Below, one piece after another: positions 1 through 7,000 of a DNA stretch of 41,582 nt. The notes below the pieces were generated by a model. It did no database searches and had not been told where the DNA came from. It saw nothing but the letters and a program-made list of their open reading frames with translations. Origin of the DNA: Candidatus Aminicenantes bacterium. GTDB taxonomy: Bacteria; Acidobacteriota; Aminicenantia; UBA2199. Location of the stretch: contig JAFGNX010000008.1 of the NCBI GenBank assembly GCA_016926835.1, positions 1 through 41,582 on the forward strand. The letters are read 5' to 3'. How positions within the stretch are numbered: the stretch's first letter is position 1; each line of letters opens with the position of its first letter. The position numbers and the translations under genes are program-made.

Positions 1-1
1 A

Positions 2-61
2 CTGATCACCGTTTTGTTGATCACCTACCTTCCCTTTCTCTCGACTGCGTTGTTGAAATAA
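2..61 (+). CDS. 3' end of a membrane protein, probably TRAP transporter large permease (DctM-like); truncated by window edge
   Basis: Frame from base 2 reads LITVLLITYLPFLSTALLK-stop (TAA 59-61); LLITYxP resembles DctM C-termini. Confidence 0.55.
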   Translation: MITVLLITYLPFLSTALLK

Positions 62-63
62 GA

Positions 64-158
64 GAGTTGAAGAGTTGAAAATGTAGGGGCGAAATATTTT
101 TCGCCCGTACACCTGTCACCTCATTTCTCCTGCCCCTACCCTCAACTATCTCAACCTG
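64..158. repeat. GTAG-type REP hairpin within a larger inverted (REPIN-like) structure
   Basis: GTAGGGGCGAAATATTTTTCGCCCGTAC (83-110); inverted GCCCCTAC at 132-139; flanked by GAGTTGAA x2 (64-79) and inverted CTCAAC copies (141-156). Confidence 0.7.
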
Positions 159-185
159 TTTTTTTCTTTTGGTTACAGGGCTTTT

Positions 186-220
186 GCTTTCGACTTTCGA
201 CTTTTCACTTTCGACTTCTA
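186..220. repeat. Heptamer tandem repeat (ACTTTYN)
   Basis: GCTTTCG ACTTTCG ACTTTTC ACTTTCG ACTTCTA. Confidence 0.85.
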
Positions 221-224
221 TCCA

Positions 225-433
225 GTGATGAGAACTCTACGGGCTAGTGATGAGAACTCAGGAGAACTTGTGATGAGAACTTCCCGGGACTTGTGATGAA
301 AATCCATTACATAGCCCACAGGCAGGTATCATCACAGTGTTCATGAGAGCATTATCACAGTTCGGACAGGCATTCTGAACTGAGCCGCCTGGCCGGATTC
401 CTCATCACCGACTCTCCTTAGTGCCGTCACAAG
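225..433. repeat. Array of GTGATGAGAACT-type repeats with 22-23-bp period, four forward and about four degenerate inverted copies
   Basis: Forward copies start at 225, 247, 270, 293; inverted copies (..TCAC) end at 335, 358, 408, 430. Confidence 0.8.
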
Positions 434-439
434 GCTTTT

Positions 440-519
440 ACTTTTCACTTTCAACTTTTCACTTTCAACTTTTCACTTTTCACTGAGTGTCTTCCTGCCA
501 CCTGTCACCTGTCACCTGA
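440..519. repeat. Heptamer tandem repeats (ACTTTTC/ACTTTCA x6; CACCTGT x3)
   Basis: 440-481 six ACTTTYM units; 499-519 CACCTGT CACCTGT CACCTGA. Confidence 0.85.
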
Positions 520-523
520 TTTT

Positions 524-871
524 GGGTTCTCATCCCCGTAGTGAGGGTATTTTACGATAAATCGGGAATACAAGAGGAATTGGAAATGAATTCAAAATGA
601 TGAGTGGCAGCGCTACGGGAACGCCTCGACATGCTGAGGTACTCCGAAGCATCCGGGCGAGGCTTCCCACGCTCGTTTCACTCGCTACGGGGATTGATGA
701 GCGGCTGCTGCCGCTCACCCTGCGGGCGGCTCGTTTACACTCGCCGTGCTGATCCGGATATGCCGGATCAGTCGAACCCGGTACTCCGGGGTTCTCATCC
801 CCGTAATTAGGTAATTTCACGAATAATATGGAAATAAAGACAGAAATTGTGAATTACTTGAAAATTGCGAA
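524..871 (-). mobile_element. tRNA-Glu-linked tandem element (putative miniature non-autonomous integrative element / tRNA-linked repeat)
   Basis: 15-bp duplicate of tRNA 3' end at 605-619; further tRNA fragments at 683-695 and 772-781; GGGTTCTCATCCCCGTA at 524-540 and 789-805; two homologous 64/66-bp AT-rich spacers; period 267 bp. Confidence 0.55.
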
Positions 872-946
872 TGGCAGCGCTACGGGGATTCGAACCCCGG
901 TTTGATGACTGAGAATCACCCGTCCTAACCCCTAGACGATAGCGCC
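872..946 (-). tRNA. tRNA-Glu (anticodon CTC)
   Basis: Reverse complement GGCGCTATCGTCTAGGGGTTAGGACGGGTGATTCTCAGTCATCAAACCGGGGTTCGAATCCCCGTAGCGCTGCCA folds as a cloverleaf; CCA encoded. Confidence 0.97.
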
Positions 947-1022: not shown

Positions 1023-1096
1023 TGGCTGGGAAGCAGGGATTCGAACCCCAATTCTATGATCCAGAGTCATATGTCCTACCGTTAGACGACTTCCCA
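1023..1096 (-). tRNA. tRNA-Gln (anticodon CTG)
   Basis: Reverse complement TGGGAAGTCGTCTAACGGTAGGACATATGACTCTGGATCATAGAATTGGGGTTCGAATCCCTGCTTCCCAGCCA; cloverleaf; CCA encoded. Confidence 0.97.
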
Positions 1097-1110: not shown

Positions 1111-1138
1111 ATTATACCAATTTCTGCCCTTTTTTCAA
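1111..1138 (-). promoter_or_regulatory. Sigma70-type promoter of the tRNA-Gln/tRNA-Glu operon
   Basis: TTGAAA-16 bp-TATAAT with extended -10 TG on minus strand. Confidence 0.7.
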
Positions 1139-3786: not shown

Positions 3787-4697
3787 TATTGTTCTTTTCC
3801 GGTCAGTATTCTCAATATTTCCAGATACTTGCTCCGGGTTTGCAGGACGACTTCCCCGGGCAGCTGCGGCGGCTGGCTGTTGCGGTCCCAACCTGTTTTC
3901 AACAGATAATTCCGGACAAACTGCTTGTCAAATGCCGGGGGCTCATTGCCGGCGGCATGGCAGGATCGGTACTCTTCCGTTTTCCAGAAACGGGAAGAGT
4001 CGGGAGTGAAAATCTCATCCACCAGTACAATCGTTCCATCCGCATCCCATCCGAATTCAAACTTGGTGTCCGCGATAATAATGCCTTTCTCCTGCGCGAA
4101 ACGATTGCCGAAACGATACAGCTCCAGGGCAAGGGAACGGATCCTGGCTGCGTTCTCCATACCCACCCGAGACGACAACTCCTTGAAAGTGATGTTTTCA
4201 TCATGCCCGGACTCGGCTTTGGTGGAGGGAGTAAATATCGGCTCGGGAAGCGGATCGTTGAATTTCAGCCCTTTGGGCAAGGTGATGCCGCATATTTCTC
4301 CGGAAGCAGTGTACGACTTCCATCCGGAACCGGCAAGATAACCACGCACAATGGCTTCAACTGGAAAAACATCCAGTTTCCGTGCCAGAACAGCGCGATC
4401 CATCAGTTGTTCTTTATACGGTTTGAATAACTCCAGTTCATGCGGCGCGTCCGTTACCAGGTGGTTGGGGATCAAATTCCGCGTCTGGTGAAACCAGAAA
4501 GAAGACAGGCGGTTCAGCACCTTGCCCTTGTCGGGGATCAATGTGGGAAGCACGTAATCAAACGCGGACAAACGATCCGTAGACACAATCAGCAATTGGT
4601 CCCCGACCACGAACACTTCACGTACTTTTCCCGATTTGAATTTTGGGAAAGGCAATTCCACCGTAGAAATTTCAGTACTGTTTGACTTGGTATCCAT
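3786..4697 (-). CDS. purC: SAICAR synthetase
   Basis: SGKVRE, TDRLSAFD, FTPSTKA, ADTKFEFG, DEIFTPDSSRFW, DKQFVR motifs. Confidence 0.98.
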   Translation of the reverse strand: MDTKSNSTEISTVELPFPKFKSGKVREVFVVGDQLLIVSTDRLSAFDYVLPTLIPDKGKVLNRLSSFWFHQTRNLIPNHLVTDAPHELELFKPYKEQLMDRAVLARKLDVFPVEAIVRGYLAGSGWKSYTASGEICGITLPKGLKFNDPLPEPIFTPSTKAESGHDENITFKELSSRVGMENAARIRSLALELYRFGNRFAQEKGIIIADTKFEFGWDADGTIVLVDEIFTPDSSRFWKTEEYRSCHAAGNEPPAFDKQFVRNYLLKTGWDRNSQPPQLPGEVVLQTRSKYLEILRILTGKEQ

Positions 4698-4755
4698 CTT
4701 ACCCCTTCTGCCCGCTGCAGCACCCTTTGGCGAAAAACGCGGCTATGCTGCCTAT

Positions 4756-4784
4756 AGATTAAAACAAGGAATTCAGCTTTTCAA
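4756..4784 (-). promoter_or_regulatory. Putative sigma70 promoter of purC-cvpA-fis
   Basis: TTGAAA-17 bp-TAATCT on minus strand. Confidence 0.45.
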
Positions 4785-4810
4785 CCATTCACCGGTTTTT
4801 TCGGACAAGG

Positions 4811-7000
4811 TTACAAAATGGAATAACCGACAATCAGCCCGGCAACCACGATCGACACCATGCTCATCAGTTTGATCAGGATATTCAGCGAAGGACCGGA
4901 AGTGTCTTTCAGTGGGTCACCGACCGTATCTCCGACCACACCGGCTTTGTGCGCAGGAGATCCTTTACCGCCCAGATTGCCTTCTTCAATGTACTTCTTG
5001 GCATTGTCCCAGGATCCGCCGGCATTGGCCATGAAGATGGCCAGAACAAAACCGGCTCCCAGCGCGCCGACCAGCAATCCCATCACCCCGGGGACGCCGA
5101 AAATGATTCCGGTCAGGATGGGAATCATTATGGCCAGCGATGACGGCAGGATCATTTCGCGCTGCGCTCCCTTGGTAGAGATCATCACGCAAGCGGCGTA
5201 GTCCGGTTTTTCCGTTCCCTGCAGGATTCCCGAGATCTCTCTGAACTGTCGGCGCACCTCGTCCACCATGGCGGAAGCGGCCCGGCCCACAGCTTTCATG
5301 GTTAATCCCGAAAAAACGAATGCCATCATGGATCCCAGAAAGATCCCTACGATTACCTTGGGATTCATGAGGTTGACTTCAAAAAGGGACATGAATCCGC
5401 TGATGTTGATGCGTGCCACCTCTTCAATACTGGTAAAGACTTTTCCGGCGCCAACCGCGATTTCTCCGCTTCGTTGAATGATGTGGATCATGCCGGCCTT
5501 GATCTCCTCTATATAGGAGGCCAACAGGGCCAAAGCGGTCAGGGCGGCGGAACCGATCGCAAACCCCTTTCCGGTTGCCGCGGTGGTGTTACCCAGCGTA
5601 TCCAGGGCGTCCGTGCGCTGGCGCACTTCTTTGGGGAGTCCGGCCATTTCCGCGTTACCCCCCGCATTATCGGCGATGGGACCATAGGCATCGGTTGCCA
5701 GGGTAATGCCCAGAGTGGAGAGCATGCCGACCGCAGCGACACCGATCCCGTACAAGCCGTGCATGGGATCCGCAAATCCGCCGGCAAAAGCGAAAGCTCC
5801 GATGATTCCCGCGGCAATGGCTGTTACGGGAACAGCGGTTGATATCATGCCGGAGGAAAGCCCGGCAATAATAATCGTGGCTTCTCCGGTTTTGGATTGT
5901 TCAGCCACTTCCACGGTCGGACGAAAACTGGATGAAGTATAGTATTCCACGCTTCTTCCCACGATAATGCCCACGAATAACCCGACGATAATGGAACCGA
6001 ATACACCCATATTTCCGGGCAACAGCAGAAATACCGCGCCCAGTGAACCGATCACGATCAGAAAAGAGCTGAAGTTAATGCCACGACCCAGGGCCTGCAG
6101 CAGTTGTTTCTGGGTGGCTCCCTCACGGGTCCGGACCAGAAAGACACCGAAAATAGAGGCAATGATACCGATTCCGGCGATCACCATGGGTAGAATGACC
6201 GCGTTAAAGGCCAACTCTTTCATGGCTGCGAAAGCGGAAGCGCCCAGGGCGGCGGCGGAAAGAATGGATCCGGCGTAGGATTCATAGAGGTCCGCCCCCA
6301 TGCCGGCCACATCACCCACGTTGTCACCCACATTATCGGCAATGGTGGCGGGATTGCGCGGGTCGTCTTCAGGAATACCCGCTTCGACTTTTCCCACCAG
6401 GTCCGCGCCCACATCAGCGGCCTTTGTAAAGATTCCGCCGCCCACGCGGGCAAAAAGAGCCTGCAGCGAAGCCCCCATGCCGAAAGAGAGCATGGTTACG
6501 GTGGTCACACCCAGGCTGTATTTCAGCCAGATGTGCAGGATGATGAACCAGAGCGAAACATCCAGCAGTCCCAGACCAACCACGACCAGGCCCAGCACCG
6601 AACCGCTCCGGAAGGCGACTTTCAAGGCTTTGTCCAGGGATTCCCTGGCCTGGTTGGTGGTTCGCGCGGACGCCAGGGTGGCGGTGGTCATACCGATAAA
6701 ACCGGCTAGCGCCGAGAAAAACCCGCCGGTAAGAAACGCGAACGGCGTCCAGGGGGACTGCACCTTGAGGCCATACGATAGGAAAGCCAGAAACACGGCG
6801 GCAACCGCAAAAAATATTGCCACGATCTTGTATTGCTGCCTGATATACGCCTTGGCACCTCGACGAACCGCTTCCGCGATTTCGATCATCTTGGCATTGC
6901 CTTCGGGCAACTTCATGATCTGGCGGTAAAACAACCAGGCGGCCAGAAGAGCTATGGCGGCTGAAACTGGAGCAATTCCGAACAGCAGGATCTTTTGCAT
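4811..7000 (-). CDS. hppA: Membrane-integral pyrophosphatase, K+-dependent, Na+ or Na+/H+ translocating type
   Basis: DVGADLVGKVE, EDDPRNP, DNVGDNVGD, GNTTAA, GDTVGDPLKDTSGP motifs. Confidence 0.98.
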   Translation of the reverse strand: MQKILLFGIAPVSAAIALLAAWLFYRQIMKLPEGNAKMIEIAEAVRRGAKAYIRQQYKIVAIFFAVAAVFLAFLSYGLKVQSPWTPFAFLTGGFFSALAGFIGMTTATLASARTTNQARESLDKALKVAFRSGSVLGLVVVGLGLLDVSLWFIILHIWLKYSLGVTTVTMLSFGMGASLQALFARVGGGIFTKAADVGADLVGKVEAGIPEDDPRNPATIADNVGDNVGDVAGMGADLYESYAGSILSAAALGASAFAAMKELAFNAVILPMVIAGIGIIASIFGVFLVRTREGATQKQLLQALGRGINFSSFLIVIGSLGAVFLLLPGNMGVFGSIIVGLFVGIIVGRSVEYYTSSSFRPTVEVAEQSKTGEATIIIAGLSSGMISTAVPVTAIAAGIIGAFAFAGGFADPMHGLYGIGVAAVGMLSTLGITLATDAYGPIADNAGGNAEMAGLPKEVRQRTDALDTLGNTTAATGKGFAIGSAALTALALLASYIEEIKAGMIHIIQRSGEIAVGAGKVFTSIEEVARINISGFMSLFEVNLMNPKVIVGIFLGSMMAFVFSGLTMKAVGRAASAMVDEVRRQFREISGILQGTEKPDYAACVMISTKGAQREMILPSSLAIMIPILTGIIFGVPGVMGLLVGALGAGFVLAIFMANAGGSWDNAKKYIEEGNLGGKGSPAHKAGVVGDTVGDPLKDTSGPSLNILIKLMSMVSIVVAGLIVGYSIL

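Follow-up and report, generated by a model that had tools for sequence, protein, structure and literature searches.

A tandem RtT-type tRNA-linked repeat, probably a structured trailer RNA, behind tRNA-Glu in a Candidatus Aminicenantes bacterium

Why does the DNA behind a bacterial tRNA gene repeat parts of that tRNA, forwards as copies of its 3′ end and backwards as an inverted copy of its T-arm? The tRNA-Glu(CUC) gene of a Candidatus Aminicenantes bacterium (assembly GCA_016926835.1) raises this question. It lies near the start of the stretch analysed here, a window of 41,582 nucleotides from contig JAFGNX010000008.1, and an earlier note had described positions 524 to 946 as a 267-bp tandem element and candidate miniature mobile system that targets tRNA genes. 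All coordinates are positions of the whole window, and the element and the tRNAs are read on the minus strand. Since the tRNA genes lie on that strand, the repeat stands downstream of tRNA-Glu, and 524-946 is the tRNA-Glu gene together with its 3′ trailer. We put at about 80% the probability that the locus holds a short tandem array of an RtT-type tRNA-linked repeat (TLR), a structured trailer RNA that is resized by recombination.

Judged by its sequence, the repeat unit is a divergent homologue of the E. coli RtT RNA, that is, of the tRNA-linked repeats. The 178-bp repeats of E. coli tyrT are the first-seen members of the TLR class, and the earlier note was correct in naming them as an analogue. 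In five units, the tRNA strand aligns in register with the Rfam model of RtT (RF00391) from end to end (1-130). The window unit scores 19.3 bits and the four others, from relatives, 29.2 and 20.9 (G001), 21.3 (G014) and 21.1 bits (G015); the best has an E-value of 0.001 in a 453-nt search. Reciprocally, a covariance model built from 10 units of the Aminicenantes lineage only (R1) recovers every one of the four RtT copies of E. coli K-12 over their whole length, with E-values between 1.3e-5 and 1.9e-4; its next match lies at E 0.25. Those four copies stand at the tyrT locus, score 133-137 bits with RF00391 and follow the plan tRNA, AT-rich leader, GGGGAAGGAUGAGAA..., core and 19-nt tRNA-Tyr tail; the annotated RttR RNA begins 7 nt behind tyrV and extends as far as the CCA in the first tail copy. 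The lineage units and RtT have in common, in the same order, GGAUGAGAAC, GGUUCGA, GCCCG(A/C)AGGG(C/U)GA and AAUCC followed by the tRNA tail, and a last hairpin with a GCA loop after the GCCCG(A/C)AGGG(C/U)GA box. Within GAUGAGAAC, which like GCCCGAAGGG counts among the invariant nucleotides, the expected T-loop complement AUUCGAA is changed to AUGAGAA in both lineages. Of the shared motifs, AUGAGAA (where AUUCGAA would be expected) and the GCCCG.AGGG box do not come from the tRNA, and these two argue for homology and not convergence. The other Rfam families, taken up to E 1-10, gave chance-level matches only: mascRNA, whose match is to the tRNA, and models of snoU83 and of microRNAs.

The two systems share a same-strand site behind a tRNA, tandem units, an AT-rich leader and the order of motifs. 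In both, the unit end repeats the last ~19 nt of the tRNA including CCA, and the 5′ strand pairs with this tail. They differ in phylum, in the adjoining tRNA (Glu-CUC and Ser here, Tyr in E. coli) and in the sequence and length of the middle hairpins, and the tail copy in the window is split by a 63-nt insert. Excerpts of Stenum et al. 2021 (PMC8144298) give 22 tRNA-linked repeats at ten loci in E. coli K-12, attributed to Rudd 1999, and state that the TLR 3′ end is identical over 18-19 bp to the 3′ end of the upstream tRNA or rRNA.

On the tRNA strand, a unit consists of an AT-rich spacer, an antisense T-arm segment (UACGGGGAU-GA-GAACCCC), the sense T-arm 5′ half GGGUUCGA, three covarying hairpins and a tRNA copy that runs from the T-loop AAUCC to the 3′ end. 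The sequence copied at the unit ends is AAUCCCCGUAGCGCUGCCA (19 nt), the 3′ part of tRNA-Glu(CUC). The window array comprises about 1.4 units, one full and one partial, and the full unit begins 66 nt behind tRNA-Glu on the same strand. Its parts are as follows.

872-946, minus strand: tRNA-Glu(CUC), CCA encoded, ending ...GGGGUUCGAAUCCCCGUAGCGCUGCCA (ARAGORN and Rfam)
806-871, minus strand: AT-rich spacer B, 66 nt, between the tRNA-Glu 3′ end and unit 1; counterpart of the AT-rich leader of E. coli RttR
683-806, minus strand: RtT-like unit 1
805..788, minus strand: motif UACGGGGAUGAGAACCCC (the "inverted T-arm mimic"), the 5′ strand of helices P0 and P1
806..797 with 694..685, minus strand: helix P0
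799..791, minus strand: motif GAUGAGAAC in unit 1
794..786 with 781..774, minus strand: helix P1
771..763 with 757..749, minus strand: helix P2
746..743 with 730..727, minus strand: helix P3
~727..720, minus strand: conserved GCCCGCAGG
719..710 with 705..696, minus strand: helix P4
to ~696, minus strand: GC-rich multi-hairpin core, ending ...GCUCAUCA
695..683, minus strand: first part of the tail copy, AAUCCCCGUAGCG, 13 nt
620-682, minus strand: hairpin-forming insert, 63 nt, splitting the tRNA-tail copy
605-619, minus strand: second part of the tail copy, CCCGUAGCGCUGCCA, equal to the last 15 nt of tRNA-Glu including CCA
542-604, minus strand: AT-rich spacer A, homologous to spacer B (77-78% over the repeat)
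524-541, minus strand: solo 5′ motif UACGGGGAUGAGAACCC, start of an incomplete second unit, where the array ends

The observations of the earlier note at this level stand. It had seen one module twice, with homologous but diverged spacers, and direct repeats indeed join 524-575 to 789-840 (77% identity, 265 nt spacing) and 575-619 to 842-886 (78% identity, 267 nt spacing); the duplicate of spacer plus motif has an E-value of 5.2e-06 when searched against the whole 2.05-Mb genome. It had also described an inverted T-arm copy about 75 nt from the T-arm, and 786-805 matches 881-900 over 20 nt at 90% complementarity, 75 nt apart. With up to three mismatches, the T-arm 18-mer occurs four times in the window (523-540 and 788-805 on the plus strand, 881-898 and 1032-1049 on the minus strand) against 0.05 expected, and none of 100 shuffles reached four. 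The "267-bp tandem" period itself is one unit lengthened by the 63-nt insert. In G001, a genome of the same genus from an independent assembly, the pattern is undisturbed: two complete units of ~199 nt follow the tRNA tail, each with spacer, GAUGAGAAC motif, core and 19-nt tail AAUCCCCGUAGCGCUGCCA, and a third spacer and motif come after them. A shorter version of the insert splits the tail copy of the last full unit there. One 308-nt contig from run X1, which like run X7 belongs to a sediment study, covers 511-818 with a single difference. As G001 also has the same layout, the repeat is not an assembly artefact, an explanation that the note had considered.

The fold of the unit is conserved. 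RNAalifold on 10 units gave four helices, with compensatory changes in 19 of the 31 pairs. In a larger alignment (50 units from 33 loci), 95.3% of cells were paired and 27 of the 31 pairs had changed on both sides; 500 shuffles never reached either value, and sliding the partners by 1-3 columns lowered the pairing to 23-46%. The window unit folds at -70.9 kcal/mol (z -6.59; none of 200 shuffles folded as well). In the minimum-energy fold of this unit, UUACGGGGAU (806..797) also pairs with the tail copy AUCCCCGUAG (694..685) as a fifth helix that closes the structure, and Rfam draws an identical closing helix for RtT. Furthermore, G:U pairs outnumber A:C pairs by 82 to 11, or by 41 to 10 when the one conserved G:U is left out. 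This excess assigns the fold to the tRNA-sense strand, as would be expected of a transcript. It favours RNA, by an indirect argument, over a folded single-stranded DNA recombination site of the integron attC or CTXphi attP type.

In the earlier note, the inverted segment was to pair with the real T-arm and covary with its stem. Pairing with the real upstream T-arm is also possible; the partners that are conserved, in P0 and P1, are sense copies of the T-arm halves within the unit itself. The antisense segment and these copies close a five-helix junction and leave the tRNA tail as a 3′ overhang. The expected covariation was found in part: over 8-13 nt, the 5′ strand of P1 equals the reverse complement of the 5′ half of the local T-arm, so that the antisense strand follows the local T-stem, while P0 gave a weak result that is taken up below.

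How closely is the unit tied to tRNA genes? R1 matches 48 of the 72 family genomes (the window genome included), 23 of the 30 good-quality ones and 11 of the 18 genera; 23 of the 71 other family genomes, many of them incomplete, had no match. A same-strand tRNA adjoins the unit in 28 of the 30 loci returned, and the other two are cut by contig ends. The adjoining tRNAs are Glu-CUC (12), Ser-UGA (11), Ser-CGA (3), Ser-GCU (1) and Ser-GGA (1), and the loci are syntenic across genera. The source assembly is a metagenome-assembled genome (MAG) of 2.05 Mb in 216 contigs, 78.8% complete (G000), of which the window is the start of contig C49; in this incomplete genome, copies stand only at the tRNA-Glu and tRNA-Ser(UGA) loci. 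Similar modules at other tRNAs thus exist, as the earlier note had supposed, both in the same genome and, across the family, at Glu(CUC) and four Ser isoacceptors. The GC-rich core recurs at contig ends of G000, where C163 ends and C130 begins inside a tRNA-Ser(UGA) array with a 120-nt period, where each unit closes with ...CUCAUCA followed by AAUCCUACUCCCUCCGCCA, which is the tail of this tRNA-Ser(UGA).

The tail copies follow the tRNA beside which they stand. They match the local tRNA-Glu (GGGCUGCCA in G014, GCCCUGCCA in G354), and a tRNA gene without CCA has a copy without CCA (e.g., the tRNA-Ser of G015). Among the 30 of 50 nhmmer hits that lie downstream of a tRNA and reach the model end, the median longest exact match was 15.5 nt with the own tRNA (n=30), 11 nt with tRNAs of the same anticodon at another locus (n=190) and 6 nt with those of another anticodon (n=532). 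The copies are unbroken in relatives, at 19-22 nt, and consist of 13 + 15 nt split by the insert in the window; they run on into tRNA trailer sequence. A core-only tree of 47 of the 50 rows, with the arm columns left out, required 3 Glu/Ser changes against ~14 in shuffles (none of 500 as low), on a tree that is short and poorly resolved and in which near-copies inflate the clustering. This clustering by tRNA type indicates that descent is mostly bound to one locus, with occasional switches.

Some loci depart from the common arrangement. In L021 (G214:C16) and L012 (G016:C6), a pseudogene copy of tRNA-Ser has an RtT core within its T-loop, flanked by GGGUUCGA and AUCC; the intact tRNA-Ser gene stands just downstream, and the L021 copy has a duplicated promoter region. 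Similar-looking units occur at L060, L061, L064 and L072, where the matches lie upstream of the tRNA and start at about model position 30. These cores are either recombinants of the tRNA T-arm with the unit's own GGGUUCGA or T-loop insertions. The tRNA-Ser(UGA) arrays (C163 end and C130 start; L060, L069) carry two tail types, AUCCUACUCCCUCCG and AUCCCUUUCCCUCCG, each of which is the real tRNA-Ser(UGA) tail in some family genomes; distal units may preserve an older or foreign tail. The small RNA family sX4 of Xanthomonas (RF02223) also touches such loci. In L124, a Luteimonas MAG, it scores 82.5 bits at 228-374, above its gathering score, directly upstream of an RtT-like core, and the match consists of tRNA-Ser and the first ~50 nt of the trailer. 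Weak matches occur at L009, L012, L005 and L010. As sX4 covers tRNA-Ser and the start of the trailer and not the core, that family may describe the tRNA and leader of an RtT-like unit.

The genes and signals around the array give the setting in which it would be expressed. Both tRNA genes lie downstream of groEL, with these features.

1183-1212: terminator-like hairpin of groEL, preceding the promoter-like site on the tRNA strand
1111-1138, minus strand: promoter-like site upstream of tRNA-Gln (TTGAAA, 16 nt, TATAAT; 11/12 matches; TG extension; consensus scan only)
1023-1096, minus strand: tRNA-Gln(CUG) (ARAGORN and Rfam)
87-106, minus strand: terminator-like hairpin with a weak T tail, the first one downstream of the array (consensus scan only)

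One side is flanked by groEL and by genes for a Fis-type helix-turn-helix protein, SAICAR synthetase and an H+-pyrophosphatase, and the other by convergent TRAP transporter genes (contig C68). A Pfam scan of the genes on both sides, over ~6 kb on one and 4 kb on the other, found no recombinase. Neither a tyrosine, serine or HUH recombinase beside the element nor a long open reading frame (ORF) inside it was found, in agreement with the earlier note, which had seen no integrase or credible protein gene. A coding reading of the 96-aa ORF at 530-820 was rejected, as it has no Pfam match and overlaps the covarying helices.

Beyond the array, the window holds further short repeats. The 9-mer GATGAGAAC, identical to the RtT 5′ motif, occurs six times in the window (both strands) against 0.35 expected, five of the six within 227-799. 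Opposite the tRNA strand, three exact boxes stand at 227, 249 and 272 (22-23 nt apart); next in this 225-300 series on the plus strand is a degenerate fourth one, GTGATGAAAAT. GTGATGA-type boxes at ~330-410 have the other orientation and form with the former a large imperfect palindrome. The boxes at 225-300 could be protein-binding sites or debris of inverted units. Purine-rich short repeats lie downstream of the array at 172-217 and 426-485 (on the tRNA strand, GUGAAAAGUUGAAAGUGAAAAG...). Over 424-517, the summed contig depth of run X1 is ~4,000-5,000, against 12.8 in neighbouring bins, which makes the purine-rich motif very abundant in that community. The last 70 nt of C42 in G000, behind tRNA-Ser(CGA), have a similar GTTGAAGAGTTGAA run after a GUGGGAUGAGAG motif.

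The number of units varies, as the earlier note had envisaged. The window has ~1.4 units, G001 2.4, and G014 and G354 at least 2. In run X2, a hot-spring metagenome from a separate study, a contig joins 523>789 and has one 265-nt unit fewer, with spacer and 5′ motif kept, while a 283-nt contig (0-2 differences) runs from 802 back to 541, so that the unit is repeated. In other contigs, the spacers are replaced by unrelated short sequences. The window's own assembly offers a further comparison (contig C68:1-260 with window 1-733). The first 75 nt of C68 equal window 733..659; it skips ~658..478 and 406..82 and rejoins 81..1 at 98.8% identity. C68 is a second haplotype of the window locus that ends the array differently, and the metagenome bin therefore mixes strains at tRNA-Glu. 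Other tRNA genes of G000 lie at or near contig ends as well, namely Ser(GCU) on C38, Ser(CGA) on C42, Gln(UUG) on C118 and Ser(UGA) on C163, which fits trailer repeats breaking the assembly.

The array is most likely a co-transcribed structured trailer RNA that is probably cut out through its tail copy. Transcription would start at the tRNA-Gln/tRNA-Glu promoter and include the array in the tRNA precursor. The tail copy would offer the same 3′-processing site as the tRNA, and the units would be released as small RNAs, like E. coli RttR and RrB. For the E. coli TLRs, the tail copy has been proposed to direct RNase E cleavage, according to the excerpts of PMC8144298. Unequal homologous recombination, with tail copies and spacers as its substrates, may lengthen and shorten the array. 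The 3′ end of the genuine tRNA would act as the first repeat, which may also keep the copies matched to the tRNA, and rare moves to other tRNA genes could use the universal GGUUCGA/AAUCC T-loop sequence as a recombination anchor. Two E. coli systems resemble this proposal. Behind the 5S rRNA genes, RrA, RrB and RrF likewise have a trailer with an 18-nt repeat of the preceding stable-RNA gene at its 3′ end, which is proposed to direct RNase E cleavage; in contrast to the present unit, they lie behind rRNA operons between two terminators, have GGA motifs and bind Hfq and CsrA (in the excerpts of PMC8144298). The 3′ETS-leuZ RNA (PMC8144298, same excerpts) is a functional RNA released from the external spacer of a tRNA precursor, as proposed here, but it is not repeated and has neither a tRNA-tail copy nor a known structural similarity.

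Several points weigh against the array being such a trailer RNA of RtT type. All five RF00391 scores (19-29 bits) fall under the gathering score of 45, and the E-values of R1 are rough since its calibration was shortened. The 50-unit alignment was fitted to the model, so that its pair and G:U counts lean towards structure. The tRNA-specific covariation of P0 is weak: cognate runs have a median of 7 bp against 5 bp for non-cognate ones in the 15 of 50 units with the AUGA motif, and since every tail contains AUCCC, this test carries too little weight to be used. The promoter and terminator candidates are consensus matches. The X2 joint 802>541 is equally expected from a 262-bp circle, and the three extra GATGAGAAC boxes on the opposite strand (227-280) hint that the motif is readable as DNA. 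Finally, the metatranscriptome runs X7 and X23, as assembled contigs and not reads, had none over 518-846, which is uninformative either way.

A wider reading would take RtT and the TLRs as one ancient multi-phylum family, with a shared five-helix core marked by GGAUGAGAAC, GGUUCGA, GCCCG(A/C)AGGG and AAUCC and a spread anchored in the T-loop, whose units sometimes land inside the T-loop. The released RNA would mimic the tRNA acceptor/T-arm 3′ strand in trans, its target being some tRNA-end-binding factor. We regard this as possible, yet doubtful. An exact three-motif pattern found at least 122 loci among 185,579 genomes, one genome per species. Among the matches listed, 115 of 122 are labelled Pseudomonadota (78 Enterobacterales), and the other seven fall to Chlorobiota, Kiritimatiellota, Myxococcota, Acidobacteriota, Fibrobacterota and, twice, Bacillota. 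Twelve listed loci were examined: the adjacent tRNA in ten is Ser-CGA, Ser-GCU, Glu-UUC, Lys-UUU, Gln or Tyr, and RF00391 scores the twelve from 129 bits down to below E 0.01, with Prosthecochloris at 42.1, Neptuniibacter at 44.6-46 and Sedimenticola at 37 bits. Cultured carriers include Prosthecochloris ethylica (tRNA-Ser-CGA), Alcanivorax (tRNA-Glu-UUC) and Neptuniibacter (tRNA-Lys, three units). R1 scored all 11 loci tried (ten from the set of twelve) at 15.6-92.3 bits, Prosthecochloris at 62.1; as the loci had been picked by motif, the scores of the models are not independent of that choice. The two Bacillota labels belong to L146, an 'uncultured Clostridia' MAG with 92.3 bits for R1 and nearly the family's own unit with arms like those of L066, and to L141, a 426-nt contig of Paenibacillus camelliae with an E. 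coli-like RtT copy of 129 bits. Each of the two appears to be a mis-binned or contaminant contig rather than a genuine copy from Bacillota. A loose two-motif pattern across the phylum was set aside: it matched 60 of 401 genomes, but its reversed control matched ~22, which makes most loose matches chance, and a few lie right behind tRNAs (e.g., tRNA-Met in G295). Full-text searches turned up no description of such repeats outside E. coli and its close relatives, which is weak evidence as most subscription journals lie outside the coverage.

Could the trailer act purely in cis? The element would then only shape how the tRNA-Gln/tRNA-Glu precursor matures, is protected at its 3′ end or is terminated, for instance as an RNase entry platform or exonuclease barrier, with tandem copies as neutral by-products and no function of a released RNA. 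The earlier note had offered a cis RNA switch on tRNA maturation as its alternative, and such a cis RNA element in the trailer lies closer to the evidence than the note's mobile element. The unit always stands directly behind a same-strand tRNA, its antisense segment can pair with the real tRNA or with the unit's own copies as in a switch, the single unit of G015 is followed by a run of eight T, and the element appears dispensable given the family genomes without a match. On the other hand, units of Acidobacteriota type and those of E. coli share conserved unpaired motifs, the strongly covarying five-helix core exceeds what a barrier hairpin needs, the E. coli unit accumulates as a discrete RNA (annotated rttR), and RrA/B/F bind Hfq and CsrA, as noted above from PMC8144298. 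We therefore consider an exclusively cis-acting trailer unlikely.

It is improbable that an unrelated family reached the same design by copying pieces of the tRNA T-arm. GGUUCGA and AAUCC are simply T-loop sequence, and the sub-threshold Rfam scores would fit such convergence. In contrast, motifs foreign to tRNA are shared in the same order (GAUGAGAAC with its AUGAGAA change, GCCCG(A/C)AGGG(C/U)GA and the GCA-looped last hairpin), the reciprocal model R1 matches four of four E. coli copies full-length, and Prosthecochloris (42.1 bits with RtT, 62.1 with R1) and Neptuniibacter (44.6-46 with RtT) lie in between.

More improbable still is the proposal of the earlier note, a miniature non-autonomous mobile element with a folded single-stranded DNA att site at the tRNA 3′ end/T-loop, a recombinase acting in trans and tails that are att duplications. 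The layout has its likeness to integrase islands and prophages, whose attL/attR are direct repeats of a tRNA 3′ part starting in the T-loop. Here too, such repeats bound the units, with identity always beginning in the T-loop at AAUCC; the family stands behind five different tRNAs with matched arms, and cores lodged in the T-loop of a tRNA-Ser pseudogene copy occur in L021 and L012, with similar-looking units in L060, L061, L064 and L072. The tree requires at least 3 Glu/Ser switches, the X2 joint is compatible with a 262-bp circle, and GATGAGAAC is enriched on both strands. Unlike islands, the array has no integrase and no cargo, and what is inserted is a conserved folded unit of 120-200 nt, tandemly repeated. 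Several findings count against mobility: the lack of a recombinase gene within ~6 kb / 4 kb, copies at two tRNA loci only in the 78.8%-complete own genome, syntenic loci, and cores that cluster by tRNA type (3 versus ~14 changes), which fits mostly vertical descent. The form with one unit fewer retains spacer and 5′ motif and is thus not a clean empty site, and the tail copies extend into the tRNA trailer, as unequal crossing-over predicts. The supposed mimic is the conserved RtT 5′ motif GGAUGAGAAC, its conserved partners lie within the unit, and the G:U asymmetry (82 vs 11 A:C) favours a sense-strand transcript. A dispersed miniature transposon (miniature inverted-repeat transposable element) was rejected, as the own genome has copies only at the tRNA-Glu and tRNA-Ser(UGA) loci.

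What, then, does a short array behind an otherwise ordinary tRNA-Glu locus mean? It reveals a recognisable RtT homologue in a distant uncultured lineage, behind other tRNAs, with a five-helix fold that covaries strongly. This, together with unpaired motifs that are conserved with E. coli, argues that the family is old and under selection and not a local accident of tyrT. Metagenome assemblies also break at tRNA genes because of such arrays, and the start of the window falls within one. In E. coli, TLRs have been known since 1978 and are still described as lacking any known function (excerpts of PMC8144298); the comparison yields a concrete structure and invariant nucleotides for mutation there. 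If the ancient-family reading is true, an E. coli curiosity unexplained since 1978 would become a widespread RNA class with a testable role.

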